NCBI GenBank assembly: GCA_964636085.1
Contig: CAZWPQ010000002.1
Location: 1 to 64,000, forward strand
Direction: 5' to 3'
From: an uncultured Nitrososphaerota archaeon
Lineage (GTDB): Archaea > Asgardarchaeota > Njordarchaeia > Njordarchaeales > Panguiarchaeaceae
DNA length: 64,000 nucleotides
The notes under the pieces were generated by a model, which did not search any database, had not been told where the DNA came from, and saw only the letters and a program-made list of their open reading frames with translations. This document shows positions 1,731 to 64,000 of the stretch, in pieces (the stretch's first letter is position 1; each line of letters starts with the position of its first letter). The position numbers were made by a program, and so were the translations under genes.

Positions 1731-1902
1731 ATTACCCTTATCTATTTTACATCATTGCTGTTTCCAACCCGAAGCATATTATATTCTAGATGTTCATAAT
1801 AAGCATCTATATGGAGGACTCTTCGACTAGTTGGCTAAAATATAAAAATTCCATAAATTTATTGGGGAGACTTTACCATAAGGATTATCAGAGGAGTTGA
1901 CC

Positions 1903-12880: not shown

Positions 12881-13233
12881 TACCCTAATAGGTACCTAAG
12901 TTCCCCCTGTATAAAGATGCCCCATCTTGTACCCAAGATTTAGAGATGTGTCTCTAGGGAAAACATATCTGCCTATCTTTAAATTTTTTGTTTGGTTTGG
13001 AGTCTATATTCATAATACTACGTCTGTAGACACAATTTTTGATTTGTTAGATGGATGTCAACGCTGTTTAGATTTATGTTTTTTATCAAAGATAACAATT
13101 TTTTTATGGAATTTAGCAATATTTATTGGCTGGAAAGATAAGCGACAAAATGTATATTCTTTGTATTTCTATTCCTAAATGGATAGTGGTATTGTCGCTT
13201 TAAAATTAGATTATTAAAGTTATTAATGGGTGA

Positions 13234-13926: not shown

Positions 13927-16279
13927 TGTGTTTGTTTGGAGAGAGATCAAAAGACTAAGATGGAGATCACTCATAATAGTGATCCTTCTTGCATTCTCGA
14001 TGGCTTTTATATCCATAATAGGGAACATGGCTAAAGGCGAGATGCTAACATTAAAGAATATAAATGAGAAGTATTCAGTGGCTGATGTAACAATTTATCT
14101 CAATGATTCATATGGCGTGGGGGATATAGAGTCTAGCGGTATAACTCAAGAGGATTGGCTTGAGAAGATAGAGTATGTGCTCTCGATCTGGGGGAACGCA
14201 TATGTCTCTGGCGAGAAGACACGTATAGCGCTCTGGGGCGTAAAAGACCGGCCGAAAATAAACACGATAAACGCGCCGGAAGAGGTTTGGCATAATTTCC
14301 ACGGGAATGTCGGGGTCATGGATAAAAATCTGGCCGAGACCCTTGGCTTATCGGCAAATGACATAGTATCCATATTTATTGGCAACAAAATAGTTAATGT
14401 TACAATATTGGCGCTTGTCGATATGGCATGGTCAATCTCATTTACGAGGCCAATGACAATATATATTGCTATTCCTCTCGAATTTGCGATGAATATCCTT
14501 GAACTAGACTCTGAAGAATATAACACCATACTTATGGATGTGAAGCCGGGATATGACCTAGAGAATGTGACAAATAGGACTCTGGAATTGCTAGAGGCAA
14601 AAAATATTTCGGTCTCAACATATACAATAGTGAATATCCAGGCCCTAGAGGAATATGTGGAGCGATTTTCCCTGATATTTAGCCTACTGATGGCGCCTCT
14701 ATCAATAATCGCTGCCGTGTTCATAATTATCATATTTATGTTGAAAATTTCCAATGAGGCACGTATAATAGGTGTAAAACGTGCGTTGGGATATACACCG
14801 AGACAGATTTTTGTTGAGATAATGGTTATTGGGATGGCTCTATATATATTATCTCTCCCCGTAGGGTTCCTTTTGGATGTTGGCATGACTTATGCTGTGG
14901 CTGGTTATGTCTATAGCAAGTATTCTGGTATATCAAAGCTAATTGTTATTGTTATTGACCTAGAAGTATTTTTTAGATCCGCTATTATATGTCTATTTGC
15001 AACAATCATAGCTATATACCTCCCGGCAAGGAAGGCCAGTAGAATGAATATTTCGGATGTGATTAGATATGGTATGGAGAAACCTAGGGCCCAATATGGG
15101 AAGGGTCGGGTATATAAGAGACTGTTTATTGGCTATGCTATTAGACATTTAAAGTCGAGAAAAATGAGGAGTATGGCTATTGTACTGGCATTTATTATTG
15201 GATTTGGCATGGCTACAGCAATCATAAATTTTATGGTGTCCCTAAACAAGGAAGGCATGGTCGCAGAAAAATTCTATAAGGCGGATATCATGATAAGCTT
15301 TAACAAGCCCAGGGATAGGGCTTCGATCATGGAAAATATAAGTAGAATTCAAGGTGTTGAGGATGTCGAGGCTATACATTTTATGTATATTGAACAAAAA
15401 AATTTTGAGTTAAATGGACGAAAGAATGGCGAACTATTCGATGTTTCTATACCAATCACAGTAATATTTTGCGAGCCAAAGACAGATCTAATAGATCCAT
15501 TGTTGATCCGTGGGGGTCTCCCTAATAATGCTGACGAGGCCTTCATAAGCTATAGGTTGGCTTTAGTTTATGATGTTGATGTAAATGACATTATTAGCAT
15601 AAAGGATATGGATACTGGAGTTGTGTTGAGGCTTAAAATAACTGGTATAGGCATCACACAGAGATCTGGAGGAAAGACAATAATAGCAATGATAGACATG
15701 GCATATCGACTAGATCTATTACCAAATGGGACAGTAAAAACTCTCCTTATAAAAACCAGCAATGATGTAGAGCCAGAATACATAGCGAAAAAATTGATTG
15801 AATATTTTGGGGATGAAGTTGCTGAGGTCGACATTTTATCATATGGAACAGGGATCGGTGAGATGGTTCAATCTATCCAAGCCTTTTCGATATCCACACT
15901 ATTTGTGATATTAATCATAGTATTTTCAATATATGTTGTTGTGAGCGTTATATCTATTCTAGAGAGAAAATATGAGATCTCTACACTGAAAAGTGTGGGA
16001 ATGACAAACAACGATGTCCTCAAAATCATAGTGCTAGAGAGGACATTACTTTATTTAGTCGCGATCGCCCCTATAGTCATGCTTTCCATAATTCTGTCGC
16101 AGGTGTTATCTGAATATTTCACCTTAGCGAGTAGTATAGAGATATATGTATTTATTGACATGTACTATCTTATAACTACCCTCATGTCCCCCCTAATAGC
16201 GATATATCTTGGTCTGTTCCCTTCCTACTTAATGATAAGAAGAATAAGTCCATCACGTGTATTCCGAGGAGTACTGTAA
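13910..16279 (+). CDS. ABC transporter permease, duplicated MacB/FtsX (type VII) family
   Basis: Two TM + ectodomain + 3TM halves; IGVKRALGYT and ERKYEISTLKSVGMT FtsX motifs; overlaps the ATPase stop. Confidence 0.9.
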   Translation: MLWCSNVFVWREIKRLRWRSLIIVILLAFSMAFISIIGNMAKGEMLTLKNINEKYSVADVTIYLNDSYGVGDIESSGITQEDWLEKIEYVLSIWGNAYVSGEKTRIALWGVKDRPKINTINAPEEVWHNFHGNVGVMDKNLAETLGLSANDIVSIFIGNKIVNVTILALVDMAWSISFTRPMTIYIAIPLEFAMNILELDSEEYNTILMDVKPGYDLENVTNRTLELLEAKNISVSTYTIVNIQALEEYVERFSLIFSLLMAPLSIIAAVFIIIIFMLKISNEARIIGVKRALGYTPRQIFVEIMVIGMALYILSLPVGFLLDVGMTYAVAGYVYSKYSGISKLIVIVIDLEVFFRSAIICLFATIIAIYLPARKASRMNISDVIRYGMEKPRAQYGKGRVYKRLFIGYAIRHLKSRKMRSMAIVLAFIIGFGMATAIINFMVSLNKEGMVAEKFYKADIMISFNKPRDRASIMENISRIQGVEDVEAIHFMYIEQKNFELNGRKNGELFDVSIPITVIFCEPKTDLIDPLLIRGGLPNNADEAFISYRLALVYDVDVNDIISIKDMDTGVVLRLKITGIGITQRSGGKTIIAMIDMAYRLDLLPNGTVKTLLIKTSNDVEPEYIAKKLIEYFGDEVAEVDILSYGTGIGEMVQSIQAFSISTLFVILIIVFSIYVVVSVISILERKYEISTLKSVGMTNNDVLKIIVLERTLLYLVAIAPIVMLSIILSQVLSEYFTLASSIEIYVFIDMYYLITTLMSPLIAIYLGLFPSYLMIRRISPSRVFRGVL

Positions 16280-32102: not shown

Positions 32103-35100
32103 TTGGGTGAGGGGGCCTTGTCGAAAATTTTGCGTGGTTTATCAATCATATTCCTAATAGTGGCGGCATCAATACCTCTGGCAAAACCCGCCAAAAGCTC
32201 TGACAAAGCTAGGATAGTGTTTATAAAGAATAATGGTGGACTCTCAGAATTCCTATATCAATTCTTCAGATCTAGGGGGGTTCCAGTTGTTCTTGTTGGA
32301 GATAATGGAAGACCTACAAAATCATCCATAATAGACGATACCGTAAAGTCTAGGCTGACTAGGGATGACATATGGGATCTAATAAGGATAGCTAGGGGAG
32401 AGGAAATACCCTCGGTTGAATATCAGGAGCTTAGAACAAAGACCGGACTAGATATAGATCCAGTTTCCGCTGGGCTCATATTAAAATCACTAGATACTAC
32501 AATTGATAGAGATCCAGAAGTAATATTCTTAGGCAAGTATAATATGTACATTAATTTAAGAAACTCATATGCAGCAATGGAGCACTGGCTAGTAAACCTA
32601 GAGAACTACGACTCCGACCACGACAAAATAGCAGATAAATTGGAGGAAATTATCGCTATAGGCACAGAAAAGATAGTGATTCCTGGAAGAAAAGTGATGC
32701 TCGACCTAGGAGACATGATCGTCCCTATTGATGAGATAGGCCCAAAGACAATAGAGATAAGATACAGCAGAGATGACCTCATATTTGTGGATGTTGCAGC
32801 GGCAGACCGAAGATTAGAGGAAGCTATTGCCTATTTCAAAAGTATGGGGGGCACCATAGAAACTGTATATAGGGAAATATGTGCATTCAGCGGATATATA
32901 GAACTCTACAAAGTTCCATTGCTCTCCAGATCACCACTAATAGGGTTCATCGAGCAACATAACGAATATTTCTATCCAATGACTTCCTGGACGGTACTTC
33001 AAATGAGAATAGGAACGCTAAGCACAAAACTAGTACCACCAAATTCATATCCAATGAATAATGAGACTCCTTGGGGCAGAGGCATATTCGGGGATCCCTC
33101 CATAGCTATAGCGATAGTTGACACAGGAATAGATGATACTCACCCTCTCACTAACAAGGTCATATATTGGTATGACTACTCAGGGGACGATGCCACAAGT
33201 CCCGAAGACTATCATGGGCACGGTACCCACTGTGCGAGTATAGCTGCAGGAAACATATGGACCGGCGACTATGTGGAGTGGGGGATAATTGCCAGAAATA
33301 GAACCGATAGTTTTGGTGCCTCGGGCAACTATTATTTGTATATAGACTCGCCGGGATGGTACGGGGTCGCGGCACTTTATTATACATCGTCAGGAACGGC
33401 TGACATATCGTTTGAGGTATACGACCCCAATCATGTTCTTCTAAACACTAGCAGGCAAGTATATGCGTCGTTTTGGGGCACCGTCGAGATAGAGCAGGCA
33501 GTGTTTAATGCCTCCCTGCCAGGTACCTATAATGTATCAGTGACGAACCTTGGAACTACAGGGGGCACTCTGATCGTAACATGGGAAAAACAGTTCCCTT
33601 ATGGTTCATATGGTTCCCAACCTGGAAGACATGCTGGAGTCGCCCCCGAGGTTAAGTTGGTTGGCCTGAAAATATTTGACAGGTCTGGATGGTTTGGCGA
33701 CTATAATTTTGACTCGATAAGATGGCTGATACAGAACGCTAGTGACTATAATATTACTGTTTCCTCGAATTCATGGGGTGGAGGAGATGATGCCACTCTT
33801 AATGAACTCATGAACCAACTGGTGATGAGTGGGGTTGTTACCGTAGTAGCTGCGGGGAATGATGGTGCTGGAGGAAACATCGGATCTCCCGGATCCGCCG
33901 ACTTAGTAATAACTGTTGCCGCGATGAACGACATAAATGAAATCTCAGAGTATAGTACCTCTGGAGACACGACAACTGGGAATACAATAAAGCCAGATGT
34001 ATCTGCGAATGGTGGTACTGGGTATTATAATGGAGACTATATAGATAAGGAGGACTCAGATCTTGATGGTAGCTCTGGAGCTGTTGCAGCTGCGGATTCT
34101 AATGATGCCGATAATGCCCCATCGGGAGGAGGATTGTTGGGGGATGCAATAACCACACTGGATAATTTCTGGGATATTCAGGGAACATCGATGGCAACTC
34201 CACACGTGAGTGGGCTCGCAGCTCTCGTTGTTAGTGCTTTGGGAGGAGCTAGTAGTTGGGTTTGGGATGGAGAACATGCACTAAAGGTAAAGATGTTGAT
34301 CTTGATGACATCTGTGGAGTTTACTAGGGCAGAGACCGGCCAGACCGTACCATCATTGGATAGGGGCGGAAAGGATAATGTGGAGGGATACGGTAGGGTT
34401 AATGGTGATGCGGCAGTCATGGCTGTTTTAAATGAGCTATTCCCTAATAGGACATATAGATATACCTTGGGTTCAAATAATTCAACCGCAATAGCGCAGG
34501 GCATAGCTCCCAGGGTATGGGCGGGCAAAATATACCTAGAGGCAGGATCTAGGTATAGGTTCAATCTGACTGTCCCAAGTGGGGCGGACTTTGACCTATA
34601 TATCTACTATGGAGAGCCAGATGAGTATGGTCAACCAGTCATAGCTGGCAAATCTACTAGTGATTCTATAGGAGGAAACGAAGTGGTCGATATTATAGCA
34701 ACGAAATCTGGATACTACTATGTTGTTGTAAAGTGGGTGGATCGCTCTGCAACAACACCATCCATCCCGGATGAGCAAAATTATGGTGAGTTTACTCTTC
34801 ATATCGATATATTGGACAGAGGCATACCGATCGTGGAGATTATTGAGCCAGAAGAAGGAGATATTATTGAAGGTGTAACTAGGATCTATGTTAATGCAAC
34901 TGATGTGGATGGGACAATAACATATGTCTATCTGAACATAAGTAATTCTACGTGGGGAACTGTTGTTGATATAACATCGAACTATGATGCGTCCCGGGGC
35001 CTATATTACTATGATTGGGACACTAGTACTGTTGCCGATGGATACTATATGATATTTGCTGGTGCTAGAGATAATGAGTCAAAAACAAATAATGATACAA

Positions 35101-38100
35101 TACAGGTACATGTATGGAACAATATCCCGCCAATACTTCTAGTTGATGACGACAAGGGTGATTCTTATGAGACATATTATGAGCAAGCACTCCAAGACCT
35201 TGGGTATCAGAGAGATATTGATTACATCTATTGGGATGTATCGGTGAATGGTACACCCACAAAGTATTTACTTGATAGAGTCGTAATAGTCATATGGTTT
35301 ACTGGTGATGATTTCACCACTACACTTACAACAGAGGAAAGGGATGTGTTAGAATATTATCTATCTAGGTGTGGGCAATTATTCATATCTGGCCAAGATA
35401 TAGGTTTTGATATTGGGGATACAACTTGGTATAGTACATGGCTAAAAGCTAATTATGAACGTGATGATACGAATATTGATTATGTTAGGGGTGTCTCGGG
35501 GACTCTATTTGGTGGAGCCATATACAACCTATCTGGCACAGATAGTGCGAACAATAATGACTTTCCTGACGAAATATCTCCAACTGGTGGCTCAACACAA
35601 ATACTCTATTATGATGATGACACAGGTATTGGGGCTGGAGTCATGTATGACGATGAGTACCGTCTTGTCTATATGTCCTTCCCATTCGAGGCTATTGATG
35701 GTTCAGTAAATAGATCCGACGCTATGCAGAGGGCCACGGACTGGATGAAGGCACCAATAGCTAAGATCTATGACTATAGTTTCTACATCGATAAATATAC
35801 CGAGAATGTATCTCTCGCTATTGCGGCTAGGGCATACCATTATATTCGGAATCTCGAGATACTTATTAATGGAACGGTGGTGTATTCGTTATCTCCGGGA
35901 AGGAGGACTTACATCAATAATATAACCATTGATACTAGCTCGTTTCCCTCTGGGACACTAAATATTACGCTGAGGATTGTAGATAATAACCTTGACGAGG
36001 TAACAGATACTATATTCATAAGTAGGGAACATTTATATCTTGATTTGGTGTTCCCAAATACGTACGATCCTGTATGGTCCACAACTAGGATCCTCGTTAA
36101 TGCATCAACATACTCTGGTGTTAATCTGACAACACTAAATGTTACTATTAGCAATGAGACATGGAGCCAGATCATAGACATTTTATCTAATTATGACTCA
36201 CAAACGGGGTATTACTATTATGACTGGGATACTACGGGCGTCGCCGACGGATCCTATAATATATCTGTGTCAGCGATTACTGATGAGGGATCTTCAAAGA
36301 CGGATAATGTTTATAACATTGGCGTATGGAATGGGATAGTGCCTATATTGCTTGTGGATGATGATAACTGGCATGACTATGAGCAGTATTTCATGGAGGC
36401 CCTCGAAAATCTGAGCTATCATTTCAACAGGGATTATGCATATTGGAATACCACTAGGAGGGGTGCTCCGCCACAAGATTTCCTCGACAGGGTTCAGATA
36501 ATGATATGGGAATGTGGTCTTTCCGCACCTAATAGTGCTGAGAGAAATGCAATATCGGAGTTTCTATCGGATCTTGGCCAACTATTTATAAGTGGACAAG
36601 ACATAGGATACCTAATTGGAGATACTGATTGGTATAAAGATTGGCTAAGAGCTATATATGAGAGGGACGACACCAACATAAATAATGTGAGTGGGGTTGC
36701 TGGTACGATATTTGAGGGAGTAACATATCTACTCTCTGGATCAGATAGCGCCAATAATAATTTCTGGCCAGACGAGATAAGCCCAACAAATGGATCATTC
36801 CTAATGATGTACTATGGAAGGGATCCAAGCATAGGCGCAGCAATTGGTTATGATGGGTATTATCGTCTGGTCTATTTTGCATATCCATTCGAATCAATAA
36901 ATGGTAGTGAATACAGGGCCGATGCCCTTGATAGGATCCTCCAGTGGCTTAGGAAACCCATCGGTGCGATAGTTAGTCCAGAAAACATGACCATAACCAA
37001 TAACGACACGATAGATATAATTGTTCATGCAAAGGCAATTACTGGGCTTGACATTATAAGGATATATGTCAATGGCTCCTTAGTAGTATTTGATGATATA
37101 GATGGAGTTGAACTAATTAAGCATTATGATATTGATGTCTCCGGATATCCGGACTATACAACACTCAACATAACTCTTGTAACGAATAGTGTTACTGGAG
37201 ACATGGACACATTCATGATCTATATTATTAGGGACAAGGTGCCGCCGTATGCTGAGTTTCTATCGCCTGCTAATGGCTCCTATTTCAATGTGACGGATAT
37301 AACATTTGAGTGGAATGGTACTGACAACTTTGGAATGAATCATTATGAGATTAGAATCGATGGCGGTGCATGGATAGATGTCGATCTACAAAACGAATAT
37401 ACATTCGCTGGCCTAGATGAGGGTATCCATACGGTCGACTTAAAGGCTATAGATCTCGCAGGAAACCAATTCACAACATCCTTAACTGTCATTGTTGACC
37501 TAACACCACCAGTCCTAATAGATATATTCCCCGAGAATGATAGCTATGTCCAATCAAAGGTTGTTATTTCATGGAACTTTAGTGACAACTATGAGCTGGA
37601 TTGCTATAAGATTAGACTGGATGGTGGCGCATGGATTATGACAACATCCACAAGCCATGTATATGAATATCTTACAGAGGGAGAGCACAGTGTCTACATT
37701 AGGGCCTATGATAAGGCAGGTAATGTTAAACTAATTACTTTGAGGATAATTGCCGATACAACGGATCCATATATTGAAATAACATACCCTCCTGGGGGAA
37801 CATTCCTAAACACTAGTACGGTATATGTAGAGTGGTATATGAGTGACAACTTTGAGCTTGATCATTGTGAAATAAGGGTGGATGGTGGAGAATGGATTGA
37901 TGTGGGTCTGGCATCAAACTATACAATATCTGGCATGTCTGAGGGCACACATATAATAGATGTGAGAGTCTATGATTCAGCAGGGAACTACGGGGAGGAT
38001 ACAGTAGTGATTTCGATAGATCTAACACCCCCAATTATTGTTGCCGTATATCCAGACTATGAGTTCTACATAAATACTACATCAACAGTAATCTCATGGG

Positions 38101-39497
38101 ATGCTATCGATAATTATGGGATCGATAGATACTATGTAAAGGTTGGAGACGGTGCATGGATCGATGTTGGTCTCTCAAACAACTATACCGTTACTGGTCT
38201 GGTTAATGGAGAAAACACTGTATATATAAAGGCTGTTGATAAGGCTGGCAACGCCGATGTTGAGATAGTGACAATAATTGTTGATACAGAGCCCCCAACT
38301 ATCAATATTGTCTATCCTTCAAATGGGACATACATAAATGTGGACAACATAATAATTTCATGGGAAGCAAACGACAACATGGAGATAGAAAGGTTTGAGA
38401 TAAGTATTAATGGTGGAGATTGGATAGATCTTGGAAAGTCAACAGGATACGCAATGGCGGAGATGGATGAGGGAATATACCTAATAGTTGTTAGATGTTA
38501 CGACATTGCTGGAAATGCGAATAGCGATGCCATAACCTTTATCGTGGATTATACGGCCCCAGAATTTATTATGTACTCCCCACCAGATGGCTCATACTTC
38601 AACTACACCAATATTGAAATCCAGTGGAACGCCACAGATAACTATGGAATCGACCACTATGAAGTATATGTAAACAACGAACTCCTCTACTCGGGAACAA
38701 ATAGCAGCCTAGGAGTAGAACTTTCGGCTGACACACATTCCATTAAGATAATAGCCTATGACTATGCTGGCAATTCAAGATATGTAGCGATTGTTGTTCA
38801 CATAGACCTTCAGACTCCATCCATCATAATAACATCTCCATCAGATGGTGCCTATATTAATGAAGACACAATATCGGTGGCATGGTCTGCCATTGATGAC
38901 TTTGGTATAGATCATTATTGCATTAGGATAGACAATGAGTCATGGATATCCATCACTAATAATAGATATATGTTCTATGGCTTAAGTGAGGGGCTACATG
39001 CAATATATGTAAGGGCATTTGACAAGGCTGGAAATTCAGCAGAGTCTAATGTATCGATTATTGTTGATCTAACAGAACCAGCAATAATAATATTGGAGCC
39101 AAAGAATAATTCGGAGCTAAATGCCACCACGGTAACAATATCATGGAATGCTACCGACAACTTTGACCTCGACCATATAGAGATATCCATAAATAATTCG
39201 GCATGGCAAGACATTGGACTCACGAATAGCATTAAGCTACAACTAGACTATGGCAAATACATAGTGAAACTGAGAGCATATGACAAAGCTGGAAATATGA
39301 AGGAAGTAGCAGTAGTATTCATAATCAAGCAAATACAGGCACCTCCATCCCATCTCAAGTGGCTACCCTTCATTGCTATAGGTGCAGCGATAGCAATAGC
39401 ACTTGTCTTAGTACCCTGGTGGAAGAGAAGAAAGAGTCGCGCGGCTGAGGAATTAGAGATTATTGAAAAGCCTATTGACGAGGAGGAGGCGGAATAA
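32103..39497 (+). CDS. Membrane-anchored S8 (subtilisin-like) serine protease with PPC domain, duplicated Ig + ILLVDDD modules and about 8 Ig-like repeats
   Basis: Catalytic IVDTGID, HGHGTHCASIAAG, VAAGN, GTSMATPHVSG; GYGRVN; ADFDLYIY (PPC); two PILLVDDD modules; D.AGN repeats; TM followed by KRRK. True start may be TTG 32118. Confidence 0.92.
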   Translation: MGEGALSKILRGLSIIFLIVAASIPLAKPAKSSDKARIVFIKNNGGLSEFLYQFFRSRGVPVVLVGDNGRPTKSSIIDDTVKSRLTRDDIWDLIRIARGEEIPSVEYQELRTKTGLDIDPVSAGLILKSLDTTIDRDPEVIFLGKYNMYINLRNSYAAMEHWLVNLENYDSDHDKIADKLEEIIAIGTEKIVIPGRKVMLDLGDMIVPIDEIGPKTIEIRYSRDDLIFVDVAAADRRLEEAIAYFKSMGGTIETVYREICAFSGYIELYKVPLLSRSPLIGFIEQHNEYFYPMTSWTVLQMRIGTLSTKLVPPNSYPMNNETPWGRGIFGDPSIAIAIVDTGIDDTHPLTNKVIYWYDYSGDDATSPEDYHGHGTHCASIAAGNIWTGDYVEWGIIARNRTDSFGASGNYYLYIDSPGWYGVAALYYTSSGTADISFEVYDPNHVLLNTSRQVYASFWGTVEIEQAVFNASLPGTYNVSVTNLGTTGGTLIVTWEKQFPYGSYGSQPGRHAGVAPEVKLVGLKIFDRSGWFGDYNFDSIRWLIQNASDYNITVSSNSWGGGDDATLNELMNQLVMSGVVTVVAAGNDGAGGNIGSPGSADLVITVAAMNDINEISEYSTSGDTTTGNTIKPDVSANGGTGYYNGDYIDKEDSDLDGSSGAVAAADSNDADNAPSGGGLLGDAITTLDNFWDIQGTSMATPHVSGLAALVVSALGGASSWVWDGEHALKVKMLILMTSVEFTRAETGQTVPSLDRGGKDNVEGYGRVNGDAAVMAVLNELFPNRTYRYTLGSNNSTAIAQGIAPRVWAGKIYLEAGSRYRFNLTVPSGADFDLYIYYGEPDEYGQPVIAGKSTSDSIGGNEVVDIIATKSGYYYVVVKWVDRSATTPSIPDEQNYGEFTLHIDILDRGIPIVEIIEPEEGDIIEGVTRIYVNATDVDGTITYVYLNISNSTWGTVVDITSNYDASRGLYYYDWDTSTVADGYYMIFAGARDNESKTNNDTIQVHVWNNIPPILLVDDDKGDSYETYYEQALQDLGYQRDIDYIYWDVSVNGTPTKYLLDRVVIVIWFTGDDFTTTLTTEERDVLEYYLSRCGQLFISGQDIGFDIGDTTWYSTWLKANYERDDTNIDYVRGVSGTLFGGAIYNLSGTDSANNNDFPDEISPTGGSTQILYYDDDTGIGAGVMYDDEYRLVYMSFPFEAIDGSVNRSDAMQRATDWMKAPIAKIYDYSFYIDKYTENVSLAIAARAYHYIRNLEILINGTVVYSLSPGRRTYINNITIDTSSFPSGTLNITLRIVDNNLDEVTDTIFISREHLYLDLVFPNTYDPVWSTTRILVNASTYSGVNLTTLNVTISNETWSQIIDILSNYDSQTGYYYYDWDTTGVADGSYNISVSAITDEGSSKTDNVYNIGVWNGIVPILLVDDDNWHDYEQYFMEALENLSYHFNRDYAYWNTTRRGAPPQDFLDRVQIMIWECGLSAPNSAERNAISEFLSDLGQLFISGQDIGYLIGDTDWYKDWLRAIYERDDTNINNVSGVAGTIFEGVTYLLSGSDSANNNFWPDEISPTNGSFLMMYYGRDPSIGAAIGYDGYYRLVYFAYPFESINGSEYRADALDRILQWLRKPIGAIVSPENMTITNNDTIDIIVHAKAITGLDIIRIYVNGSLVVFDDIDGVELIKHYDIDVSGYPDYTTLNITLVTNSVTGDMDTFMIYIIRDKVPPYAEFLSPANGSYFNVTDITFEWNGTDNFGMNHYEIRIDGGAWIDVDLQNEYTFAGLDEGIHTVDLKAIDLAGNQFTTSLTVIVDLTPPVLIDIFPENDSYVQSKVVISWNFSDNYELDCYKIRLDGGAWIMTTSTSHVYEYLTEGEHSVYIRAYDKAGNVKLITLRIIADTTDPYIEITYPPGGTFLNTSTVYVEWYMSDNFELDHCEIRVDGGEWIDVGLASNYTISGMSEGTHIIDVRVYDSAGNYGEDTVVISIDLTPPIIVAVYPDYEFYINTTSTVISWDAIDNYGIDRYYVKVGDGAWIDVGLSNNYTVTGLVNGENTVYIKAVDKAGNADVEIVTIIVDTEPPTINIVYPSNGTYINVDNIIISWEANDNMEIERFEISINGGDWIDLGKSTGYAMAEMDEGIYLIVVRCYDIAGNANSDAITFIVDYTAPEFIMYSPPDGSYFNYTNIEIQWNATDNYGIDHYEVYVNNELLYSGTNSSLGVELSADTHSIKIIAYDYAGNSRYVAIVVHIDLQTPSIIITSPSDGAYINEDTISVAWSAIDDFGIDHYCIRIDNESWISITNNRYMFYGLSEGLHAIYVRAFDKAGNSAESNVSIIVDLTEPAIIILEPKNNSELNATTVTISWNATDNFDLDHIEISINNSAWQDIGLTNSIKLQLDYGKYIVKLRAYDKAGNMKEVAVVFIIKQIQAPPSHLKWLPFIAIGAAIAIALVLVPWWKRRKSRAAEELEIIEKPIDEEEAE

Positions 39498-46168: not shown

Positions 46169-46309
46169 CCGCAGAAAGCAAAAAATTTGTGGCTAGAGTA
46201 TAGGTAGATATTCGGACTACCTTTAACCTTTTAAATAAAAAATATTTTTATTCTAGTTTTGACTACGAAAGCCTTAATTCTTGGGGCTTTTCGTAGTCAA
46301 GAAGATTCG

Positions 46310-49300
46310 ATGGTGAAGAGTTTGAGAAAGTATAATCAATATTTGTGTTCTCTAATAATTGTCGCTATGTTGGCTACGTATGGTGTATATGGTAGTGTGA
46401 TGAGGATCGCGAATGATGCAAATAGTAGGACTACTACTGCTCATGGGTCGAGTGCCAATAACATGGGTATAATGGAGCATAAGCTTGTGATCGGTTATGA
46501 TGCTACCTTCAGAAACTGTATAATAAATGGGACAGTGGAGATTAGAAACGGATCGAGAGTAATGTTCGAAAATGTAACATTCTATGCCGAATCCCTATAC
46601 TATTGGGTTGAGGGGAGAGAAAAGGGCTTTATAGAGGTCTATGACACTGCGGAGGTAATGATCAAAAATTCAAGGATTATAGCTACTTCGTGGTCCCCGC
46701 GAATATATGTCTATAATACATCAGGAATCACAATCGATAACGTGAGTATATACTCAACAATGGGAGGGATCAATATATATGCATATGGGGACTCAAGTGT
46801 AAATATCTATGATTGTAATGCCAGCACAACATTATACATATTCCTTCGTGACTATGCAGCGGCGATTGTGATTAACTCCTCAATATGGCAGATACTCGCA
46901 TACGATAATTCGGGCGTATACCTATACGAGAGCATTAATAACACATATATAGAAACACATGATTCCTCATTACTTTATGTATTCGGAGCAAAAATGGGGT
47001 ATGGCGACTATATAAGTGCGGGGGATAATAGCCATGTAGAAATTATAAACACTGTTTTTTCAAGCGGAGGAATAGCCTGTGATGGACATGCAAGCGTTCA
47101 AGCTACACAATCAGTATTGGACTATATAGTTGCGGAGGACGCGGCTAATGTCTCGCTTGTAAATACAAACGTATCAAATCTCTGGGCATACGATCACGCA
47201 GACCTGCATATCAGTGGTGGATACTTTAATTGGATAGATCTATATCATGTTCCTATGGCCGGAGAAGAAGCAATGCTGGGTCCAGGAGGGGAAATTAAAG
47301 ATGCGACCATCACAACGCTACATACATCCTCTGCAAGGATAATAAGACTTATTAACTGTTATGTCTCATCGCTTTATTATCTCGACATATTTAATGGCTC
47401 TTATGCATATGTATACGTTGGTGGCTATATATACGATAGTGCATACCCGAATTATGAGGCGTTAGGATCAACAATAGTCAATACTTATCATATATCAGGC
47501 GTGGCCGTTGGAAATAATGTAGACCTATTTGTGATCCATAGACCCATGAATCAAATCGTGGCTTTCAATGTAGACAGGCTTGAAATATACAATATTACTG
47601 ACACTGGTAGCGTTATTGCGTTATACACGAACTGCTATATATATAATATAAGTGTTTATGATGTAGAATTTGCCTTTTACGGGAGCAATGTAACAATAAA
47701 TAACCTAACATATAAGACTTCTGGCTTTTATTTCTCGTTTCTGGCCAGGGATTCAAACATAACCATATACGACTCCAACATAGAGTACATGGATATTAGT
47801 ATCTATGATTCGAAGGTATCGTTTAGGTCAGTTTTGATAAACAACTCCTATTTATTGATCGAAAACTCTAGTGGGACACTGGACTGCATAATGGATTCCA
47901 CGATTCCTGATCTCTCAGATAGTGATATAGTTTTCAACAACTCGGTTATTTCTTCGACACTACATATTTATAGGTCTAAGGTAGGTCTAATAAACACGAC
48001 GCTATATGATGTGATAATAGATGAGGTTCGCCTTGCCGACGGCGTTTTCAACATGACTGATGGAGTTATAATTTCCTACACCGTGGATATAATAAGTGGT
48101 CTATATGAAATAGAACCCTCCAATATTTATAGTGGATATATTTCTATTGACTACTTCGTACTTGATAATGCTTCTCTAGAGATAGATACCTATACGATCA
48201 ATGTAATAATGGGGGGATATGTGGATATAGATCTCTATAATTCCTCTAAGTTGTATCTAATAAATGTATCTGCCGTTTATCCAAGAGAGGTATGCATCAA
48301 TGTGTATAATGACTCTGCAATATATCTCTTCGATTCGGATGTCTACACTATATATGCTGAGGGGGATGTCTATATTGAGAACACAGGCGTGAACCAAATT
48401 GATATTCATAACTCGGACATAGAAATTTTCCACTCCCAAATCTCTGAATTGGAGATGGATAGCTCACGCCTCGTTGCGAACTATACCAACTTTTCAGAAA
48501 TAGAGATAATGTCAGGAGAGGTTATGCTTGATTCATGTTATGTTGATGATATGGGTGGTGGCGACTTGTTTGCATTCATGTTAAATGGAACGATCTGTGA
48601 TGCCAACATAACCATATTAAACTCAAATGTCTCTGGATATCATGCACTCCTAGGAGGCAATCTAACGATTAAAAACTCGAATGTTTCCGAGATATTTGCA
48701 GCATATCAATGGGTGGATATATATGACTCAAATATAGGATTCGCCCTAAATGTAAGCCTATTTACATCGGGATCCGCAACCATAAGCAACAACGTGATCA
48801 CGTCAGGGACATATATGGTTCTACTCCATAAGTATGGTACAACAGTCATAGGAAGCATGGGTTATGCTATTTCAATACTGCAAGATCCAGATGAACCACT
48901 TGTGGATTTAAGTATAGAAAATACTTTTGCTTACCCAGTAGTGGTTGCGCTGGGAGGGAGATTAGATATCGACAACTCGATGTTTATGATTGTATTTGTA
49001 AATACAGATACAGATTTTAGAGCCACAAATTCCATCATTAATGCCTCAGAAATGGAGGAAGTCCCAGTAATTTTGGTGGCGAGTACACTCTACATGGATA
49101 ATGTAACAATAATCTCAGAGATGCTTATACTTGCGGCATCGAATGATGCACAAATCCTCAACTCGGGATTTAATGTTGATGGTATATACATATATAATAC
49201 AACAATAACAATCACAAATACCGACGTAACGCCCTTTGCAGATCCAGATGGAACAGTCATTGCGAATTCCTACGTCTCTGTGGAGTATTCGACAATACTT

Positions 49301-50437
49301 GCAGCAACGTTATATGAATCCACACTTCATCTAAACGTAGTGAATGTCATTGACGCCAATGTAGAGGGTATTGTATTGTCCGAGGGATCCGTGCTGGATG
49401 GGGATAGTGTGAATGCATCAAATATACTAGCAGCCTACATGTTCAAGTATTACTTCATGATATTTACGATGGTCTCCACATACGATATCCCGGTAAGAAA
49501 TATAGATGTTCATCTCGTAAACTCTAGGATAATGGAGGGATACATCAAATATTATGTGGTTGATAATCCACTCGGCGCTGAATTTGATAACGAAACAATA
49601 ATGGGTTCATATAGTACTTTAACAAACTACTCAAACTCATACACGACAGGCGCGGTACCATATTTCGTTTTCAGAATCTCTGGGAGTGGACATGCCAACA
49701 TAACTAATTACAGGGGAGGAAATATAATACACTCCATAATGATCATGGCTACCCGGGACATTTCGCCGCCAGAAATAGCTGCACTTAATGCCAGTACGAT
49801 AGAATATGAGTATGGGCTAGAGAGGAAGTTGTGCTATGTGCTGAATGACGAGACGCCAACGAATTATAAGGTCTCTATCAATGATACAATCATCGAAACC
49901 GGCATATATACAAGTGGATATACGCTATGTGTGGACCTTGCCACATACATAACTTCTCCTGGTTATTATGTCGTTAAAGTATATGCCTATGATAGTGACC
50001 TAAATAGTGTATATACAACAACTTATGTTCGTGTACATCCCGCAGAGGCACCACTTATAACACTGGAGCCTAAGGATAATTACACGATTAATGTAGGTGA
50101 AGGAATAATACTTAACTGGTCGGCGACAGATCTTTCCCCCGATTTATATCAAATTATTGTCAATGGATCAAAGGTGGAGGAAAAATCTTGGGCGTCTGGC
50201 GAGGTAATATCGTATGAATATCAGGCAGAAGATGTTGGGAAGGTCAATATAACCATAGTATTCCAAGACCAGCTAGGGCTAAAGTCTACAGATACTGTAA
50301 TTCTAAATGTCACCAAGGCAACAACCACAAAGAAACCTATAACTTATATTGCCATAGGTGCCATAGCTTTTCTTGCTTTGGTAGTCGCCATAATATTACT
50401 AAAGAGGAAAGGAAAACCTATGAAGGAGGAGGAATAG
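46310..50437 (+). CDS. Large type I membrane surface protein with long parallel beta-helix + 2 Ig-like domains + TM
   Basis: Signal peptide; ~1,100 aa of I.NS.I / .YD.S.V beta-helix coils; many NxS/T sequons; TM followed by KRKGK. Start refined to ATG 46310 (track 46259). Confidence 0.85.
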   Translation: MVKSLRKYNQYLCSLIIVAMLATYGVYGSVMRIANDANSRTTTAHGSSANNMGIMEHKLVIGYDATFRNCIINGTVEIRNGSRVMFENVTFYAESLYYWVEGREKGFIEVYDTAEVMIKNSRIIATSWSPRIYVYNTSGITIDNVSIYSTMGGINIYAYGDSSVNIYDCNASTTLYIFLRDYAAAIVINSSIWQILAYDNSGVYLYESINNTYIETHDSSLLYVFGAKMGYGDYISAGDNSHVEIINTVFSSGGIACDGHASVQATQSVLDYIVAEDAANVSLVNTNVSNLWAYDHADLHISGGYFNWIDLYHVPMAGEEAMLGPGGEIKDATITTLHTSSARIIRLINCYVSSLYYLDIFNGSYAYVYVGGYIYDSAYPNYEALGSTIVNTYHISGVAVGNNVDLFVIHRPMNQIVAFNVDRLEIYNITDTGSVIALYTNCYIYNISVYDVEFAFYGSNVTINNLTYKTSGFYFSFLARDSNITIYDSNIEYMDISIYDSKVSFRSVLINNSYLLIENSSGTLDCIMDSTIPDLSDSDIVFNNSVISSTLHIYRSKVGLINTTLYDVIIDEVRLADGVFNMTDGVIISYTVDIISGLYEIEPSNIYSGYISIDYFVLDNASLEIDTYTINVIMGGYVDIDLYNSSKLYLINVSAVYPREVCINVYNDSAIYLFDSDVYTIYAEGDVYIENTGVNQIDIHNSDIEIFHSQISELEMDSSRLVANYTNFSEIEIMSGEVMLDSCYVDDMGGGDLFAFMLNGTICDANITILNSNVSGYHALLGGNLTIKNSNVSEIFAAYQWVDIYDSNIGFALNVSLFTSGSATISNNVITSGTYMVLLHKYGTTVIGSMGYAISILQDPDEPLVDLSIENTFAYPVVVALGGRLDIDNSMFMIVFVNTDTDFRATNSIINASEMEEVPVILVASTLYMDNVTIISEMLILAASNDAQILNSGFNVDGIYIYNTTITITNTDVTPFADPDGTVIANSYVSVEYSTILAATLYESTLHLNVVNVIDANVEGIVLSEGSVLDGDSVNASNILAAYMFKYYFMIFTMVSTYDIPVRNIDVHLVNSRIMEGYIKYYVVDNPLGAEFDNETIMGSYSTLTNYSNSYTTGAVPYFVFRISGSGHANITNYRGGNIIHSIMIMATRDISPPEIAALNASTIEYEYGLERKLCYVLNDETPTNYKVSINDTIIETGIYTSGYTLCVDLATYITSPGYYVVKVYAYDSDLNSVYTTTYVRVHPAEAPLITLEPKDNYTINVGEGIILNWSATDLSPDLYQIIVNGSKVEEKSWASGEVISYEYQAEDVGKVNITIVFQDQLGLKSTDTVILNVTKATTTKKPITYIAIGAIAFLALVVAIILLKRKGKPMKEEE

Positions 50438-52579: not shown

Positions 52580-55500
52580 TTGGTAAGGGGGAAGCTGGCC
52601 TGTCTATTATTAATATTGGCGATTTTGACGCCCAGACTAGTCGTTTTTAACGATTTTGATGGGGTTTCTAGTGTTGAGTCTAAAGGAACAGAGGACGATT
52701 TTGTTGACATATGTTTGTTCTACAGCGAGTATAATTCTCTACTTGGGAGATCATCCGAGAGACTGTACTTCAATATAAGGTACATATATCCACATGTTGA
52801 CTTGTGTGGTGTGCGTAGTATTTATGATATAACGCTGAAAGCCGATGATTACGACATACTTATCTTGATGTTCAATACTACACGGGACTCCGTTATCGTA
52901 GGTAATACACCACTATCATGGGGCGAATTTGTGGATTTTCTACGCATGTATCCTGATAAGGAAATCATACTCTTACTGGGCAACTCCTACATGCTGAATG
53001 AGACAAGCGATAATTGGCATTTTGAAAGCGTAGAATATGATAGTATCTATGCATATGAGACCTATGGCGTCTGGAAGGTTGCCAAGATATTCGAATCCCT
53101 AGGCCCAGAATATAAATGGTACGCATTAAAGTTGAAGGAGAGCGCGCTCAGCTATTACTTCGATAACATAGACAGAATATTCGAATCAAAAATTACGCCA
53201 TCACAAGTAATTGGAAGCAGGGATGAGGAGTATAGAAAGGCAAAAATAGAGGAATACCTAAGAGAACATCCCTCCTCCCTTAGGGTCAGGGTAGCCGATG
53301 AGAAAAACCCCAATGGCCCAATAATATACATTAGAAATTTTGCTAAGAATTCAGATGGATATGACTACTTACCATTCCCCAAGATGTCCGGGATTGCAAG
53401 TTCTATCGGGGATTTCATTGACGAGGTGCTGGGCTTCTTATCTGGCAATGGTTGTGATTTTCTAACAATAAATTTCTCGGTGATAGATCAAATCGTAGAT
53501 GCATTTAAATCCGTATATGATTTTATTGGCGACCCCGCAAAAATGGGGGAGGGATCGCTGCTCAAGGGGTTCCTAGGCTCGCTGATGCAAGAGTTTCCAT
53601 ACATTGAGAACTATACAAAATACTTGGATCTTTTTATGGACGGCTTCTATGCCCTCAAGGGCGACATAAGTTCCATACTGGACTTCCTAATGGGGGCCAT
53701 CGATCTAGTCTTTCCTTCGGGAACGGGAGTGGATGAGTATATAGAGCAATTAAAATCCATAGCGGGGGAGATATTATCCATAACTGACCAAGTAATGAAT
53801 CTTTACCAGAGAATCACCAGCAACAAAATTAGCATGGTTCTCCAGTATATAATGGGGAAAATCACCAATATTACGATCCAAGAATTCCTAAAAAACATGA
53901 CTGGAATAACAGATTTTGACTCGCTATATAACAGATTGAGCTCACTGTTCTCCATTGGCATGCAGATATTTACACTCCAAAACATAACAGATTTCGCCTC
54001 AAAATTGTTCAAATTTATAACGGAGGACTTGAATATCTTTGATTATCCCGACATTGGCGACATAGCAGGAAAAATAAAGTCTATAATATCCCTAGCATTA
54101 TCGTTTCTAGAGAAAGAAAAATCATCTCTATCGCAACTACTGAGGGACGCCATAACCTCATTCATAGGCGAGTCATATATATCGGACATAGAGAAAATGG
54201 TTGATGATATACTGGATGAAGTTGATGATGCCATAAAAGAGGCAGAATCTGATATAGAGGGCTTTAGGTCACGCATAGAGGACATCATAAACACTTATGT
54301 CTCTAATTTCCCCGATCTGGAAGAGGTAAGAGAGATACTAAGAGAAGTAATAACACTGATAACTGCGATCTCAAACCCCGGATTTGATATCTCAGAGGCT
54401 ACTAGCCTCATAGAAATATTTGAGGATATACTAGAGACCTATCTTTCTGGATATGAGGATGATATCAATCGTTTATTCTTAATATTGAACTCCACTGTAA
54501 TCCCAATAGGGCTTCTAAATGCTCCATCAAGACTACAGAAGGCATTTCTAAAACAATTAAACCCATTATTGGACATGCGGCAAAATGTCCTAAGATACCT
54601 AATAGAAACGGTAAAGAGAATAATAATGGATACGGAGGAGTACGTTCAGATAGAAGATGTGCTGAAGTACATAGAGAATGGAACAACAATAATCAGCGCA
54701 ATACTTAACATAATCTCGGAGGTTAGGGAGAGACCATTCGATGGGATAACGTCGGCCCTAATGTTTGCTGCGTCCATCACACAGACCCAGTTATTTGGCA
54801 ATATGACTATAGGAAATCTGACGACATTTCTAATGGCATTATTACCGGATCTAATGGGGCTAGATAGGGTACCATCTTTGGAGGAATGTAAGAATATGAT
54901 AATCAATGCTCTAAGTGGATTTAGTTCTCAAATAAAAACCACGGTTATTACGCTATTCGAGTTCCTGTATGACATTAGAGAGGTTATGAGGAATGGAGTA
55001 AAATGGTTTACAACAAAGATACTCGATTGGGTGGCTGGATATGTAGCGGACTTTGTTTCAGATCTTGTTGGGGAGATAGAGGATATAATAGACCAGTATA
55101 CGTTTCTTAATCTAGAGGGAGATATGAATTTTGGTTTTGCTGGGCTTGATGCTATTACATTTTCATACAAGATAGTTATAAGCGCTGGGGTCGACATTGA
55201 TGAGTCTGGACTAACTAATGATATTAAGGACATGATATTGAGGGGTAAGTATTTAGACTTCTTGAACCCGATAAAGGTTTTCGAAACGTTGATAGGCCAT
55301 GTAACAATAACGCCCATAATAGAGGCACAGATAAAGATGTCATCGATGGCTACGAATACAGATCTTCTAGGCGAAATTATAGGTCTTCTAGGAGCGGATA
55401 TAAGTATAGAAGGAGAGGCCAGATTTAAACTGGTATTGTTCTCATTCAAATCTGGTACCTTCGATATGAGCGAATTCCTAGACTTGAAGGAGTGGTATCT

Positions 55501-58500
55501 AATGTTCTCAATGTCCATATCAAAGACATTTTCAATATTTGACATAATCGGGGCGCCAGAATTGGCATCGGTAGCTGAGGATCTGGGTCTGGACCTGATA
55601 ACTGTTACTCTTACAATTGGATTCAAACTAGAAATAAACCTTGGATCTGAGAGTGAGGATAGTGGGGCACATTCCATATTGTCGCTAGAGATTACCGTGG
55701 CTGGAACACTCCACATAGGTATCGATGTAGTGATAGCTGAGGTCTCCATAGACTTCACACTATCTATATCCTTCACATTTACCATAGACACGTCAAAGCC
55801 AGACCCATTACTATTTGAGATATCAGTGAAATACAAACTCAAGATACATGCAGAATTCCTATTTGTAGGAAAGACATGGAAATTTGGTGGCACTATATTC
55901 ACATATCAATTCCCAGAGAACGAGTCGGATACCCCAGATAAGCATGCAGGAGGATTTGATGAGGATGCTGACGGCCTCCCAGATAACTTCGAGAAAGAAA
56001 ACTTTGGATTCTCACCCACAAGAGCAGACACAGATGAAGACGGTCTAGGCGATAATGAAGAGTTAAATGCGTATGGCACAGATCCACTGGATCCAGATAC
56101 TGATGGGGATGGATTGACAGACTATGATGAGATAAAGGTATATGACACTAATCCATTCATAAGAGACACTGATAATGATGGCCTGACGGATTATGAGGAA
56201 ACCATAATATATGCTACGGATCCCCACGAGGTGGATACCGATGGGGATGGATTAGATGACTATTTTGAAGTACACTATACATGGGACATTAGTAATGTGA
56301 CTATAAGCATTTCTGGAGTATCGATTGGTGGAGAAATATACTATGATCACACAGATCCTCTGAATCCTGATACTGATGGCGATGGGCTTCTTGATGGCCA
56401 AGAAGGGCCTCTAGGTGGCTATTATCTCCCATTTGCGTACGATTTTGGCGAAAACCCAATAATATTTAATTATGGCTATACGCATCCATTAGACAATGAT
56501 ACTGATGATGATTCATACATGCAGGAACCCGATGGATCTATTAGGGAGCCAAAATATTTCTTAAGATCTATGACCGATAAAGAAGAGATAGATGGCATTA
56601 CAGTAGTCTATATAGATCCCGAAGAGGGGCCGGTGCTAAGAACATTTAGGACAAATCCGATATGTCCAGACTCTGACCAAGACACTGGCAGTTCTACAAT
56701 ACTGTTGAGTGATGGATACGAGTTATCCCGAAATCCACCCTCAAATCCATTAAACGGAGATAGTGATGGCGATGGGATTATAGATGGTAATGAAGGTACG
56801 TCATCACCATATTCAAATAAGACAGATCGTCTAAACCCAGATACAGATGGAGATGGTCTTGGGGATATGCAGGAAATAGTTTTGGGTCTTGATCCAGGTG
56901 AGCCTGATACTGATGGTGATATGGTGTCCGATGGGGATGAGTTTATTAAATATGGCACGAACCCAAGGCTTTTTGATAGTGATAATGATAGACTTAGTGA
57001 CGGTGAGGAATTATTCTATTGGCACTCTAACCCAATGTTAAAAGATAGTGATAATGATGGTATAATAGATGGTGATGAGGTACTCATATACTTTACAGAC
57101 CCCATGGACGAGGATTCAGACAACGACAATCTTACAGATCCGATGGAGATATTTGTATACCATACAAATCCATTGGAGGCCGACAGTGATTATGATGGTC
57201 TTGTTGATGGAGACGAGATTTTCCTATACAATACAAGTCCACTGAACTGGGATAGTGATGGTGACTCCATACTATATCCAAACGAGACGGGAGATATAAC
57301 ATGGCCCATGAGTGATTATAGAGAAATATTCGTCTTTGGCACAGACCCACTAGACTCTGACACGGATAATGATGGCTTATCAGATGCGATAGAGACATAC
57401 TTGGCTAGCGGGAAAATACCCAACTTTGAACCAATAATGCTTGATGCAAATAATAACGATACTGATGGCGATGGGCTGATCGATGGCCATGAAATCCATA
57501 TTAGGAATATAAGCGATATCGTCTATCCCTACGTGAGCTTTATCATATATTATCCACTCAATTCATCGCCACTCCTAGTAGATACCGATGGTGACGGTCT
57601 CACTGACTATAGAGAAATAATGATATATGCAAGCAAAGCAAACTGTAATGATAGTGATGGTGATGGTCTCAGTGATTATGATGAGGTGGTCATCTATAAT
57701 ACCAGTCCAATATACTGGGACACAGATAAGGATAATATATCTGACTATGACGAGGTTAATGGTTTTGTTGCGTCGCTTGGCTATAAATTCCCAGATTTAA
57801 TGACGGTGTTCTATACAGATCCTGCTGATCCAGACACTGATGATGACTACTTGCCGGATGGATATGAGGCACAAGTACTCAGATCAAACCCCACAATAAA
57901 GGACGAGGATAATAATGGAATTGAAGATGGATTGGACTTTGATACAGATGGCGACATGTTGAGTGACGGATTGGAATTCTATGTATACAATACCTCATAC
58001 TATCCTGGTGGTGGTCCATTAAATCCTGATTCGGATCAGGACGGGCTTAGCGATGGATCAGAAGTATATGTCTATGGTACTGATCCAGCTGATCCCGATA
58101 CAGATGATGATGGTATATTGGATGGGGCCGAGGTAGCGGCTGGGACAGATCCACTATCATTTACATCGTGGGAAGAATATGTTGATGCTCTCAACATTTT
58201 GCTTGGGGGTAACTATATAAAGATACTGAGTCCTAGAGGCACCATTATTGATAAGTATACGAATGTTAGGGTGATTAACGGTACTACATTCACTGAGATG
58301 TGGTTTAGATATAAAAAGATTGGGGACGACTTTTCGAGTAATTACTCACTGGTCTATGATCCAGATTCGCTTCAATGGGTATATAGCGACATTGTCTGGG
58401 AAGAAGGAAACTATACCATAGAGGTATTTGGAAGAACTCCTGGAGGAGAAGTATTTAAAGCAACTGAGGAGTTCGGGTTCATCTCGGTCGAGAAGAAGAT

Positions 58501-64000: not shown

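Follow-up and report, generated by a model that had tools for sequence, protein, structure and literature searches.

The analysed stretch of DNA (the window) comprises the first 64 kb (64,000 nucleotides, nt) of the 116.8-kb contig CAZWPQ010000002.1 (C2) from an uncultured archaeon of the Njordarchaeales, and its last part is occupied by two overlapping giant genes, here called gene 1 and gene 2. The analysis of this pair across Asgard genomes allowed us to recognize a conserved two-gene module, whose products, on balance, probably form a putative 1:1 complex at the cell surface, devoted to Ca-dependent adhesion or recognition. As judged from their sequences, both products are type I membrane proteins, each composed of a signal peptide, a very large ectodomain, a single transmembrane (TM) helix near the C terminus and a short basic tail in the cytoplasm. 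The two genes are predicted to be translationally coupled, with gene 2 translated from a Shine-Dalgarno (SD) site in the last codons of gene 1. The pair and the signal between its members are located as follows:

52580-58657, plus strand: gene 1, 2025 amino acids (aa), a type I membrane giant surface protein (reading frame and its translation)
58637-58644, plus strand: GGAGGTGA, the SD site of gene 2, inside the last codons of gene 1, where it encodes the Gly-Gly of the tail
58650-64000 in the window, and on to C2:66338, plus strand: gene 2, of whose 2562 codons the window holds the first 1783 (Pfam matches and read-through in the genome)

Translation of gene 1 bore out the open reading frame (ORF) at 52580-58657 that had been proposed in the preliminary description of this DNA, and its orthologues across Asgard genomes span 2040-2260 aa. 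The stop codon of gene 1 (TAG, 58655-58657) and the start codon of gene 2 (GTG, 58650) produce an overlap of 8 nt, and GGAGGTGA precedes the GTG by 5 nt, in agreement with the start/stop overlap and the strong ribosome-binding site inside the upstream coding sequence noticed beforehand. The ATG at 58632 was considered as the start of gene 2 and discarded, because the SD site lies downstream of it and the N termini of the orthologues align to the GTG at 58650. In the orthologous loci, the intergenic gap ranges from -12 to +7 nt, and 15/17 of them carry a GGAGG(T)-like site, which is placed within gene 1 or at its end and precedes the start codon of gene 2 by 6-12 nt; the encoding of this site accounts for the conserved Gly-Gly near the C terminus of gene 1. 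Since the SD site lies within codons of gene 1, both products are expected from one messenger RNA (mRNA), and coupled translation of that mRNA would yield roughly equal amounts of the two proteins. Moreover, open frames as long as these (2025 and 2568 codons), each conserved in orthologues, go far beyond what chance would produce, so that both ORFs can be taken as real genes.

The window breaks off at an incomplete TG codon, which the preliminary description considered as a possible TGA stop; in that case gene 2 would have lacked an anchor, in line with the secreted propeller subunit proposed there. Reading the contig beyond position 64000, we found that this codon is TGG and that gene 2 continues for 773 codons past the window edge, to C2:66338, reaching 2562 aa from the GTG. 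The C terminus (...LLLITAIPPIAVAIYVKKKE) consists of a TM anchor and a basic tail, with the helix placed by hydropathy at residues 2546-2564 of the 2568-aa ORF, within the last 25 residues, and most complete orthologues end in the same way; a hydropathy comparison indicated that the C-terminal TM helix and tail of gene 1 are conserved among its orthologues as well. A membrane anchor belonging to gene 2 had been named in advance as an outcome that speaks against the proposed complex, and it is present; the notion of a secreted subunit was therefore abandoned.

The distribution of the pair was examined in 400 Asgard genomes, 90 of them of high quality, and adjacency was counted by eye from two search tables, with two candidates per genome scored. 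The profile of the gene 1 head found its target in 101/400 genomes (27/90 high-quality ones) and that of the gene 2 N terminus in 90/400 (25/90), with nearly identical family tallies for gene 1 and gene 2, of 10/31 and 10/31 in family f7, 10/12 and 10/12 in f16, and 14/22 and 12/22 in f24. In all of the ~55 loci that could be judged, belonging to at least 9 Asgard families, the two genes are neighbours on the same contig and the same strand, so that the adjacency which the preliminary description wished to see tested in archaeal metagenome-assembled genomes (MAGs) holds in these Asgard loci. Neither gene was seen without its partner in loci where the contigs permit judgement, and the apparent separations coincide with ORFs cut at contig ends. 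Furthermore, the flanking genes differ between families, which indicates that the conserved unit is the pair alone.

Three paralogue classes could be distinguished, namely the standard one, a short one (~1550 + ~1900 aa) and one in which the gene order is reversed and extra genes are present. In particular, in the reversed class (L024, L028 and L038, at G027:C23, G046:C229 and G113:C1:1633501-1653500), the gene 2-like member comes first and the gene 1-like member second. Behind them there are one or two additional genes (~650-950 aa), which also overlap and are conserved within the class. The trees of gene 1 and gene 2 are congruent (patristic r = 0.93), with the three paralogue classes and the within-genome paralogues mirrored in both, and this congruence shows inheritance as a unit, without partner swapping, and not binding.

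The two genes have been fused at least twice. Within one genus, single-ORF fusions were found in three species (L032, L033 and L036, at G353:C38, G370:C28 and G352:C144), with lengths of 4836-4897 aa, and a second fusion lineage, ~30% identical to the first, is represented by proteins of 4348 and 4360 aa in two assemblies. At each junction, the gene 1 TM helix, a K/S-rich linker of 60-80 aa and the gene 2 leader are all kept. From this layout, a hairpin in the membrane is predicted that leaves the two ectodomains on the outer side, as would suit side-by-side subunits. The fusions of the first lineage rank among the largest ORFs of their genomes, and a signal peptidase cut after the internal leader of a fusion would restore two proteins.

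Carriers of the pair include "Candidatus Lokiarchaeum ossiferum" (where gene 2 is NEF87_004126), "Candidatus Harpocratesius repetitus," "Candidatus Heimdallarchaeum aukensis" and "Candidatus H. endolithica," in addition to MAGs labelled Hodarchaeales, Kariarchaeaceae and Heimdallarchaeota. Every public copy is annotated as "hypothetical protein" or "VCBS repeat-containing," consistent with the earlier supposition that the pair does not match an already characterised S-layer or adhesin family, and in the literature searched we found no paper describing the pair, combining FG-GAP and Asgard, or citing NEF87_004126/7, K9W45_00320 or K9W46_01380. Against 1.84 billion representatives, the head profile retrieved 190 proteins only (E ≤ 1e-3), and the head family is thus small; a search for loci with a 3-sequence head alignment returned two loci only. 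This head family is likely restricted to Asgard archaea. A contig from the Guaymas Basin binned as "Candidatus Coatesbacteria" (L030; QMNJ01000170.1, 3714 nt) encodes a fragment that shares 80% identity with residues 713-1107 of gene 1; this contig probably derives from an Asgard archaeon and was assigned to the bacterial MAG by mistake.

It has been reported that L. ossiferum has no S-layer, is bounded by a single membrane and displays unidentified complex surface proteins, some of which join protrusions (PMC9834061), and that it crawls while adhered by means of adhesion molecules that are unidentified (PMC13716822). Asgard archaea in general are devoid of an S-layer and bear large surface assemblies on their single membrane; they rely on partner cells and move by crawling over surfaces to which they adhere, and no adhesion molecule has been named for them. 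The pair would represent a concrete candidate, also for the "complex surface proteins" of S-layer-less Asgard cells, because it occurs in about a quarter of the sampled Asgard genomes, in Loki-, Heimdall-, Hod- and Njord-type lineages, because it is inherited strictly as a unit, sometimes fused, and annotated only as "hypothetical," and because it is present in the cultured L. ossiferum, for which proteomics, cryo-electron tomography and antibody tools exist.

It is possible to hypothesize that the two proteins are neighbours in the single cell membrane and make up a surface complex of two subunits in a 1:1 ratio, in which gene 1 would hold up a head of ~1100 aa (flavodoxin-like domain, helices and amphipathic sheet) on a Ca-loaded TSP3 stalk, and gene 2 would form a column of Ca-binding FG-GAP propellers that also includes a lectin-like insert and an Asp-box region. 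The most likely role of such a complex would be the Ca-dependent recognition of, and adhesion to, external surfaces, for instance partner cells, particles or glycans. The adjacency, the SD overlap in 15/17 loci, the congruent trees and the fusions argue indirectly but strongly for the stoichiometric two-subunit complex put forward in the preliminary description; the secreted state of gene 2, which was part of that proposal, did not stand. When residues 40-340 of gene 1 and residues 60-720 of gene 2 were submitted together to complex prediction, the score was 0.00, which speaks neither for nor against the association.

Several observations weigh against this interpretation. The adhesion role is inferred from domain types only (FG-GAP, TSP3 and the possible lectin-like insert), which are common in enzymes and in other surface proteins. 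The gene 1 head yielded no informative homologue in Pfam, in a PDB sequence search or in the ESM Atlas, and the cytoplasmic tails are short or of low complexity, with no recognisable signalling or cytoskeleton-binding motif. The congruence of the trees adds little beyond linkage, because linked genes share their history by default. Moreover, the module is patchy, being found in 0/135 genomes of one large Asgard family for either gene (f12) and lacking in several close relatives (66-91% complete), and it is therefore not essential.

A rather unlikely alternative, which nevertheless deserves consideration, is that the two genes encode independent surface proteins, merely cotranscribed and each acting alone, for example as a separate adhesin. 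The region is indeed crowded with giant surface proteins (1343, 1740, 2464, 1392 and 1916 aa), and TSP3 stalks are generic, occurring in 47 ORFs of the same 2.4-Mb genome according to a genome-wide scan. However, plain co-regulation rarely keeps an exceptionless adjacency across at least 9 families while the flanks change, and neither gene was found alone where contigs permit judgement. This alternative also leaves unexplained two independent fusions that preserve the side-by-side membrane topology, and the N-terminal 300 aa of gene 2 are unusually conserved for the tip of a free adhesin.

The favoured two-subunit complex has to be considered together with the architecture of its members. In gene 1, the following elements could be recognized:

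52580-52651, plus strand: hydrophobic leader spanning residues 1-24, either a signal peptide or an uncleaved signal anchor (residues 6-24 form the peak in hydropathy)
52709-53269, plus strand: N-domain, residues 44-230, three-layer alpha/beta with a flavodoxin-like fold (AlphaFold2, AF2)
53402-55093, plus strand: helical region, residues 275-838, ~25 helices, the last one of 56 aa (AF2)
55100-55900, plus strand: amphipathic beta domain, residues 841-1107 (AF2, VIA and Foldseek)
55958-58159, plus strand: TSP3 array, residues ~1127-1860 (Pfam PF18884 and motif count)
58217-58489, plus strand: membrane-proximal domain of ~90 aa, residues ~1880-1970, unclassified, with no Pfam match (sequence only)
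58523-58654, plus strand: TM helix at residues 1982-2000 (hydropathy 2.85), followed by the basic tail on the cytoplasmic side, with ...NEGGEESA at its end

The helix at residues 1982-2000 and the ~1100-aa head devoid of a Pfam family agree with the early view of gene 1 as a TM-anchored protein with a large unclassified head, and the ~26 TSP3-like Ca-binding repeats ascribed to its stalk were recovered too. In particular, the array matches TSP3_bac (PF18884) with an E value of 1.8e-40 (136.8 bits, cut-off 25) and contains 24-26 Ca motifs of the DxDxDG type with a period of ~23 aa, at residues 1127-1845, as in the thrombospondin type 3 "wire"; different from TSP3_bac proteins, it forms a stalk of ~730 aa that joins a novel head to the TM anchor. 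In the surface proteins of this archaeon, TSP3 arrays seem to be in general use as a stalk module, and, being so generic, the array of gene 1 is unlikely to serve as a specific docking site. In the other proteins inspected, the TSP3 repeats occupy the C-terminal half (e.g., C14:14840-20176, C44:56-5638 and C2:73086-78836).

The head was modelled with AF2 from 36 sequences (mean pLDDT 75.9, pTM 0.49, with low inter-domain confidence); in the model, the leader is a helix followed by a low-confidence linker. No paralogue of the head was found by the scan of its own genome. The N-domain (residues 44-230) is modelled with a pLDDT above 90 and has no Pfam match; VIA compared it with SAVED-CHAT at Z 9.9, and with the AdiA wing, receiver and lumazine-synthase folds at Z 8.7-8.2. 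A peptidase of the caspase/CHAT fold was considered for this domain and rejected, since none of the columns that are fully or almost fully conserved in the alignment of the domain (A1) holds a His or a Cys. Other proteins, of 1500-2500 aa, begin with the same flavodoxin-like domain too (profile positions ~45-230), and many of them belong to the short paralogue class (hits P0088-P0125, e.g., G002:C40:13835-14359). For the helical region and the head, the PDB sequence search gave designed helical repeats only, and an ATG17-like Pfam match on gene 1 (17.6 bits, cut-off 43) was discarded as coiled-coil noise.

The beta domain (residues 841-1107) consists, in the AF2 model, of ~10 antiparallel strands of 13-20 aa with short hydrophobic helices, and it reached a pLDDT of 73.6 and a pTM of 0.60 when modelled alone. 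In the VIA comparison, outer-membrane beta-barrels account for each of the 50 best matches (Z 8.6-11.6, root mean square deviation [rmsd] 4-9 Å), and Foldseek retrieved the same barrels with a low TM-score (0.3-0.4). Across 23 orthologues, each of the strands presents one strongly hydrophobic face (Kyte-Doolittle hydropathy, +1.4 to +3.5) and one polar face, and a conserved Gly-rich loop, TGGxGGGAL, lies within the domain. The likeness to outer-membrane barrels (CymA, OmpG, autotransporters and TonB-dependent transporters) concerns the long antiparallel amphipathic strands and the barrel-like curvature, with Z up to 11.6; different from these barrels, the domain belongs to a host with a single membrane (PMC9834061), is located at the distal end of an ectodomain and shows no sequence similarity to them. 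For the whole head, the best Foldseek matches are large lipid-transfer proteins, namely MTP (E 4e-5, probability 0.97), lipovitellin and vitellogenin, with a TM-score of ~0.1, and these proteins lie outside the top 50 VIA rows. Large lipid-transfer proteins combine an N-terminal beta-barrel with a helical solenoid and with a lipid cavity built by their A and C sheets. The head shares with MTP and lipovitellin a helical region followed by amphipathic sheets, but its superpositions on barrels and lipid-transfer proteins are poor (rmsd 4-9 Å, TM-score 0.1-0.4). The head represents a protein family without a Pfam model, and it carries an amphipathic sheet resembling a barrel wall in an organism without an outer membrane.

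These features could be accounted for by a membrane-engaging or lipid-handling device, in which the gene 1 head would bind lipid or insert into a membrane and gene 2 would recognise the target, with cell-cell contact, lipid exchange or fusion as the outcome. We hold this explanation improbable. The exclusive match of the beta domain to outer-membrane barrel walls in a single-membrane organism, the conserved hydrophobic strand faces and TGGxGGGAL loop, and the lipid-transfer proteins at the top of the whole-head Foldseek search are all in its favour; however, the TM-scores to those proteins are ~0.1 and VIA did not rank them, the barrel matches have a high rmsd and a low Foldseek TM-score, and the inter-domain confidence of the head model is low. 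In a conservative reading of the model, the hydrophobic face of the sheet may simply pack against the helices as an ordinary protein core; alternatively, the head may bind lipid or engage a membrane.

A bolder version of the two-subunit complex, distinctly unlikely in our opinion, would be an Asgard-specific heterodimeric cell-contact machine, in which the propellers and the lectin-like insert of gene 2 would recognise the surface of the partner and the large hydrophobic sheet of gene 1 would then bind lipid or insert into the partner membrane. If this were true, the pair would unite, in functional analogy, an integrin-like receptor and a module that engages membranes, and it would bear on syntrophic contact, on surface crawling and on the engagement between archaeal host and bacteria in eukaryogenesis.

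In gene 2, the elements of interest within the window are the following:

58902-59774, plus strand: the most conserved block, residues ~85-375, with the first FG-GAP blades (WEPW.TKAA...GGGYLYDNEIHIYRW...; alignment A4)
59802-60359, plus strand: insert, residues ~385-570, a possible galactose-binding-like jelly roll (sub-threshold leads only)
62517-63749, plus strand: BNR/Asp-box-like region, residues ~1290-1700 (Asp-box motifs and sub-threshold BNR_2)

The signal peptide and the many FG-GAP blades attributed to gene 2 by the preliminary description were retrieved: the N terminus is signal-peptide-like, 19 Ca motifs of the FG-GAP type (DxDxDGxxD/E loop) are spread over 2400 aa, and Pfam assigned FG-GAP_3 (PF13517; E 6.6e-33, 113.6 bits, cut-off 26.9) over 5 stretches and FG-GAP (PF01839) with 28.6 bits (cut-off 22.1). 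The alignment of 19 gene 2 orthologues over the conserved block (A4) contains 32 invariant columns, with 30-62% identity, and the Ca motifs of this block lie at residues 154, 210, 269 and 333. In its own genome, gene 2 found a single weak match, at the level of FG-GAP (E 1.8e-6), and the PDB sequence search gave nothing informative, with kaptin at E 0.005. The Pfam matches of gene 2 to BBS7, BBS2 and Itfg2, which could suggest kinship with the BBSome or KICSTOR, were rejected as FG-GAP cross-matches, no stretch passing alone.

The jelly-roll nature of the insert and the nested Asp-box propeller, both proposed earlier, found weak support. For the insert, Pfam gave no match, and the language-model leads of the ESM Atlas, CBM32 and F5_F8_type_C, scored 0.79-0.80, below the 0.9 mark. 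In the second region, there are two canonical Asp-boxes, SDDGGKTW (1368) and SMNGGQTW (1599), and the match to BNR_2 (PF13088; E 6.8e-5) stays at 22.8 bits, under the cut-off of 31.4. The Asp-boxes, the sub-threshold BNR_2, the weak leads for the insert and a weak match to the lambda-carrageenase propeller family could together point to a membrane-anchored glycan-processing complex, in which gene 2 would act as the enzyme, for example as a propeller of the sialidase or lyase type whose insert binds carbohydrate, with gene 1 in an accessory role. This explanation appears very improbable to us, since no single matched stretch reaches the Pfam cut-off of a catalytic family, conserved catalytic residues could not be pointed out, the pair has no conserved neighbours encoding glycoside hydrolases or transporters, and the best conserved part of gene 2 is the FG-GAP N terminus and not the BNR-like region.

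Among known systems, the putative two-subunit complex is reminiscent of the integrin alpha/beta receptors of animals, whose subunits associate non-covalently through the propeller and the betaI domain. Both consist of two type I membrane subunits with short cytoplasmic tails, one of which (here gene 2) is built on Ca-binding FG-GAP propeller blades and the other (here gene 1) carries an alpha/beta tip domain above a long repetitive stalk, and adhesion is the role that we propose here. However, there is no sequence homology beyond the widespread FG-GAP repeat. Different from integrin alpha, in which Ig-like thigh and calf legs follow a single seven-bladed FG-GAP propeller, gene 2 features about three propellers with inserts and no thigh or calf domains; its 19 Ca motifs extend over 2400 aa with inserts, and the integrin_alpha2 legs are absent from the Pfam scan. 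Compared with integrin beta, the best fold matches of the tip of gene 1 are CHAT, flavodoxin and receiver folds (Z 8-10) rather than vWA/betaI, and its stalk is made of TSP3 repeats; Pfam gave no match to integrin_beta, VWA, PSI or EGF in gene 1, hybrid and I-EGF domains were not found, and the first strand lacks the DxSxS motif of the metal-ion-dependent adhesion site (MIDAS), although absence from a list of fold matches does not exclude the family. The likeness to integrins is at most an analogy of layout, not family membership. With the VCBS/FG-GAP surface proteins (PF13517), gene 2 shares a match above the Pfam threshold and the name "VCBS repeat-containing protein" given to its UniRef orthologues, but it differs from them in its size (2562 aa), in its family-specific N-terminal block, in its TM anchor and in its obligatory partner gene.

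Tandem giant genes of Asgard genomes are also known from the aloposon of Heimdallarchaeum, which contains the giants Otus and Ephialtes (3000-6000 aa), preceded by four genes including a MinD/ParA ATPase, and which integrates at a tRNA gene downstream of the giants (PMC8813620). That the pair is cargo of such a mobile element is so improbable that we rejected it, since the upstream side lacks both a ParA/MinD-like gene and the block of four genes (its ORFs either go unmatched in Pfam or encode chromosomal housekeeping neighbours, namely TrmO, tRNA-binding, HAD and radical-SAM proteins), ARAGORN finds no tRNA gene in window positions 40000-64000 and the following 14 kb (to 12 kb past gene 2), the G+C content is even across the window, the proteins are smaller (2025 and 2562 aa, not 3000-6000 aa), and the two closed Heimdallarchaeum genomes contain one locus per query, with the giants not detected as relatives.

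As for the surroundings of the pair, the window contains four more giant ORFs, all on the plus strand (1897-5928, 6026-11248, 32103-39497 and 46259-50437). They include a 2464-aa subtilase with many Big_7 Ig domains and a 1343-aa protein with FG-GAP and Ig domains, in addition to proteins of 1740 and 1392 aa with few or no Pfam matches. Downstream of the pair, beyond the window, two ORFs on the plus strand (L001:10922-12268 and 13102-14517) correspond to a fusion of GGACT/AIG2-like and N-formylglutamate amidohydrolase-like domains and to an AAA_14/DUF4143 ATPase. Furthermore, a non-coding element of ~100 nt occurs twice in the same orientation, 6437 nt apart (L001:8365-8465 and L001:14802-14902, corresponding to C2:66365-66465 and 72802-72902), one copy being located 27 nt past the gene 2 stop and the other ~250 nt upstream of the next giant gene. 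The two copies, which are the only ones in the genome, are 90% identical over a 31-nt core and ~75% identical over the wider element.

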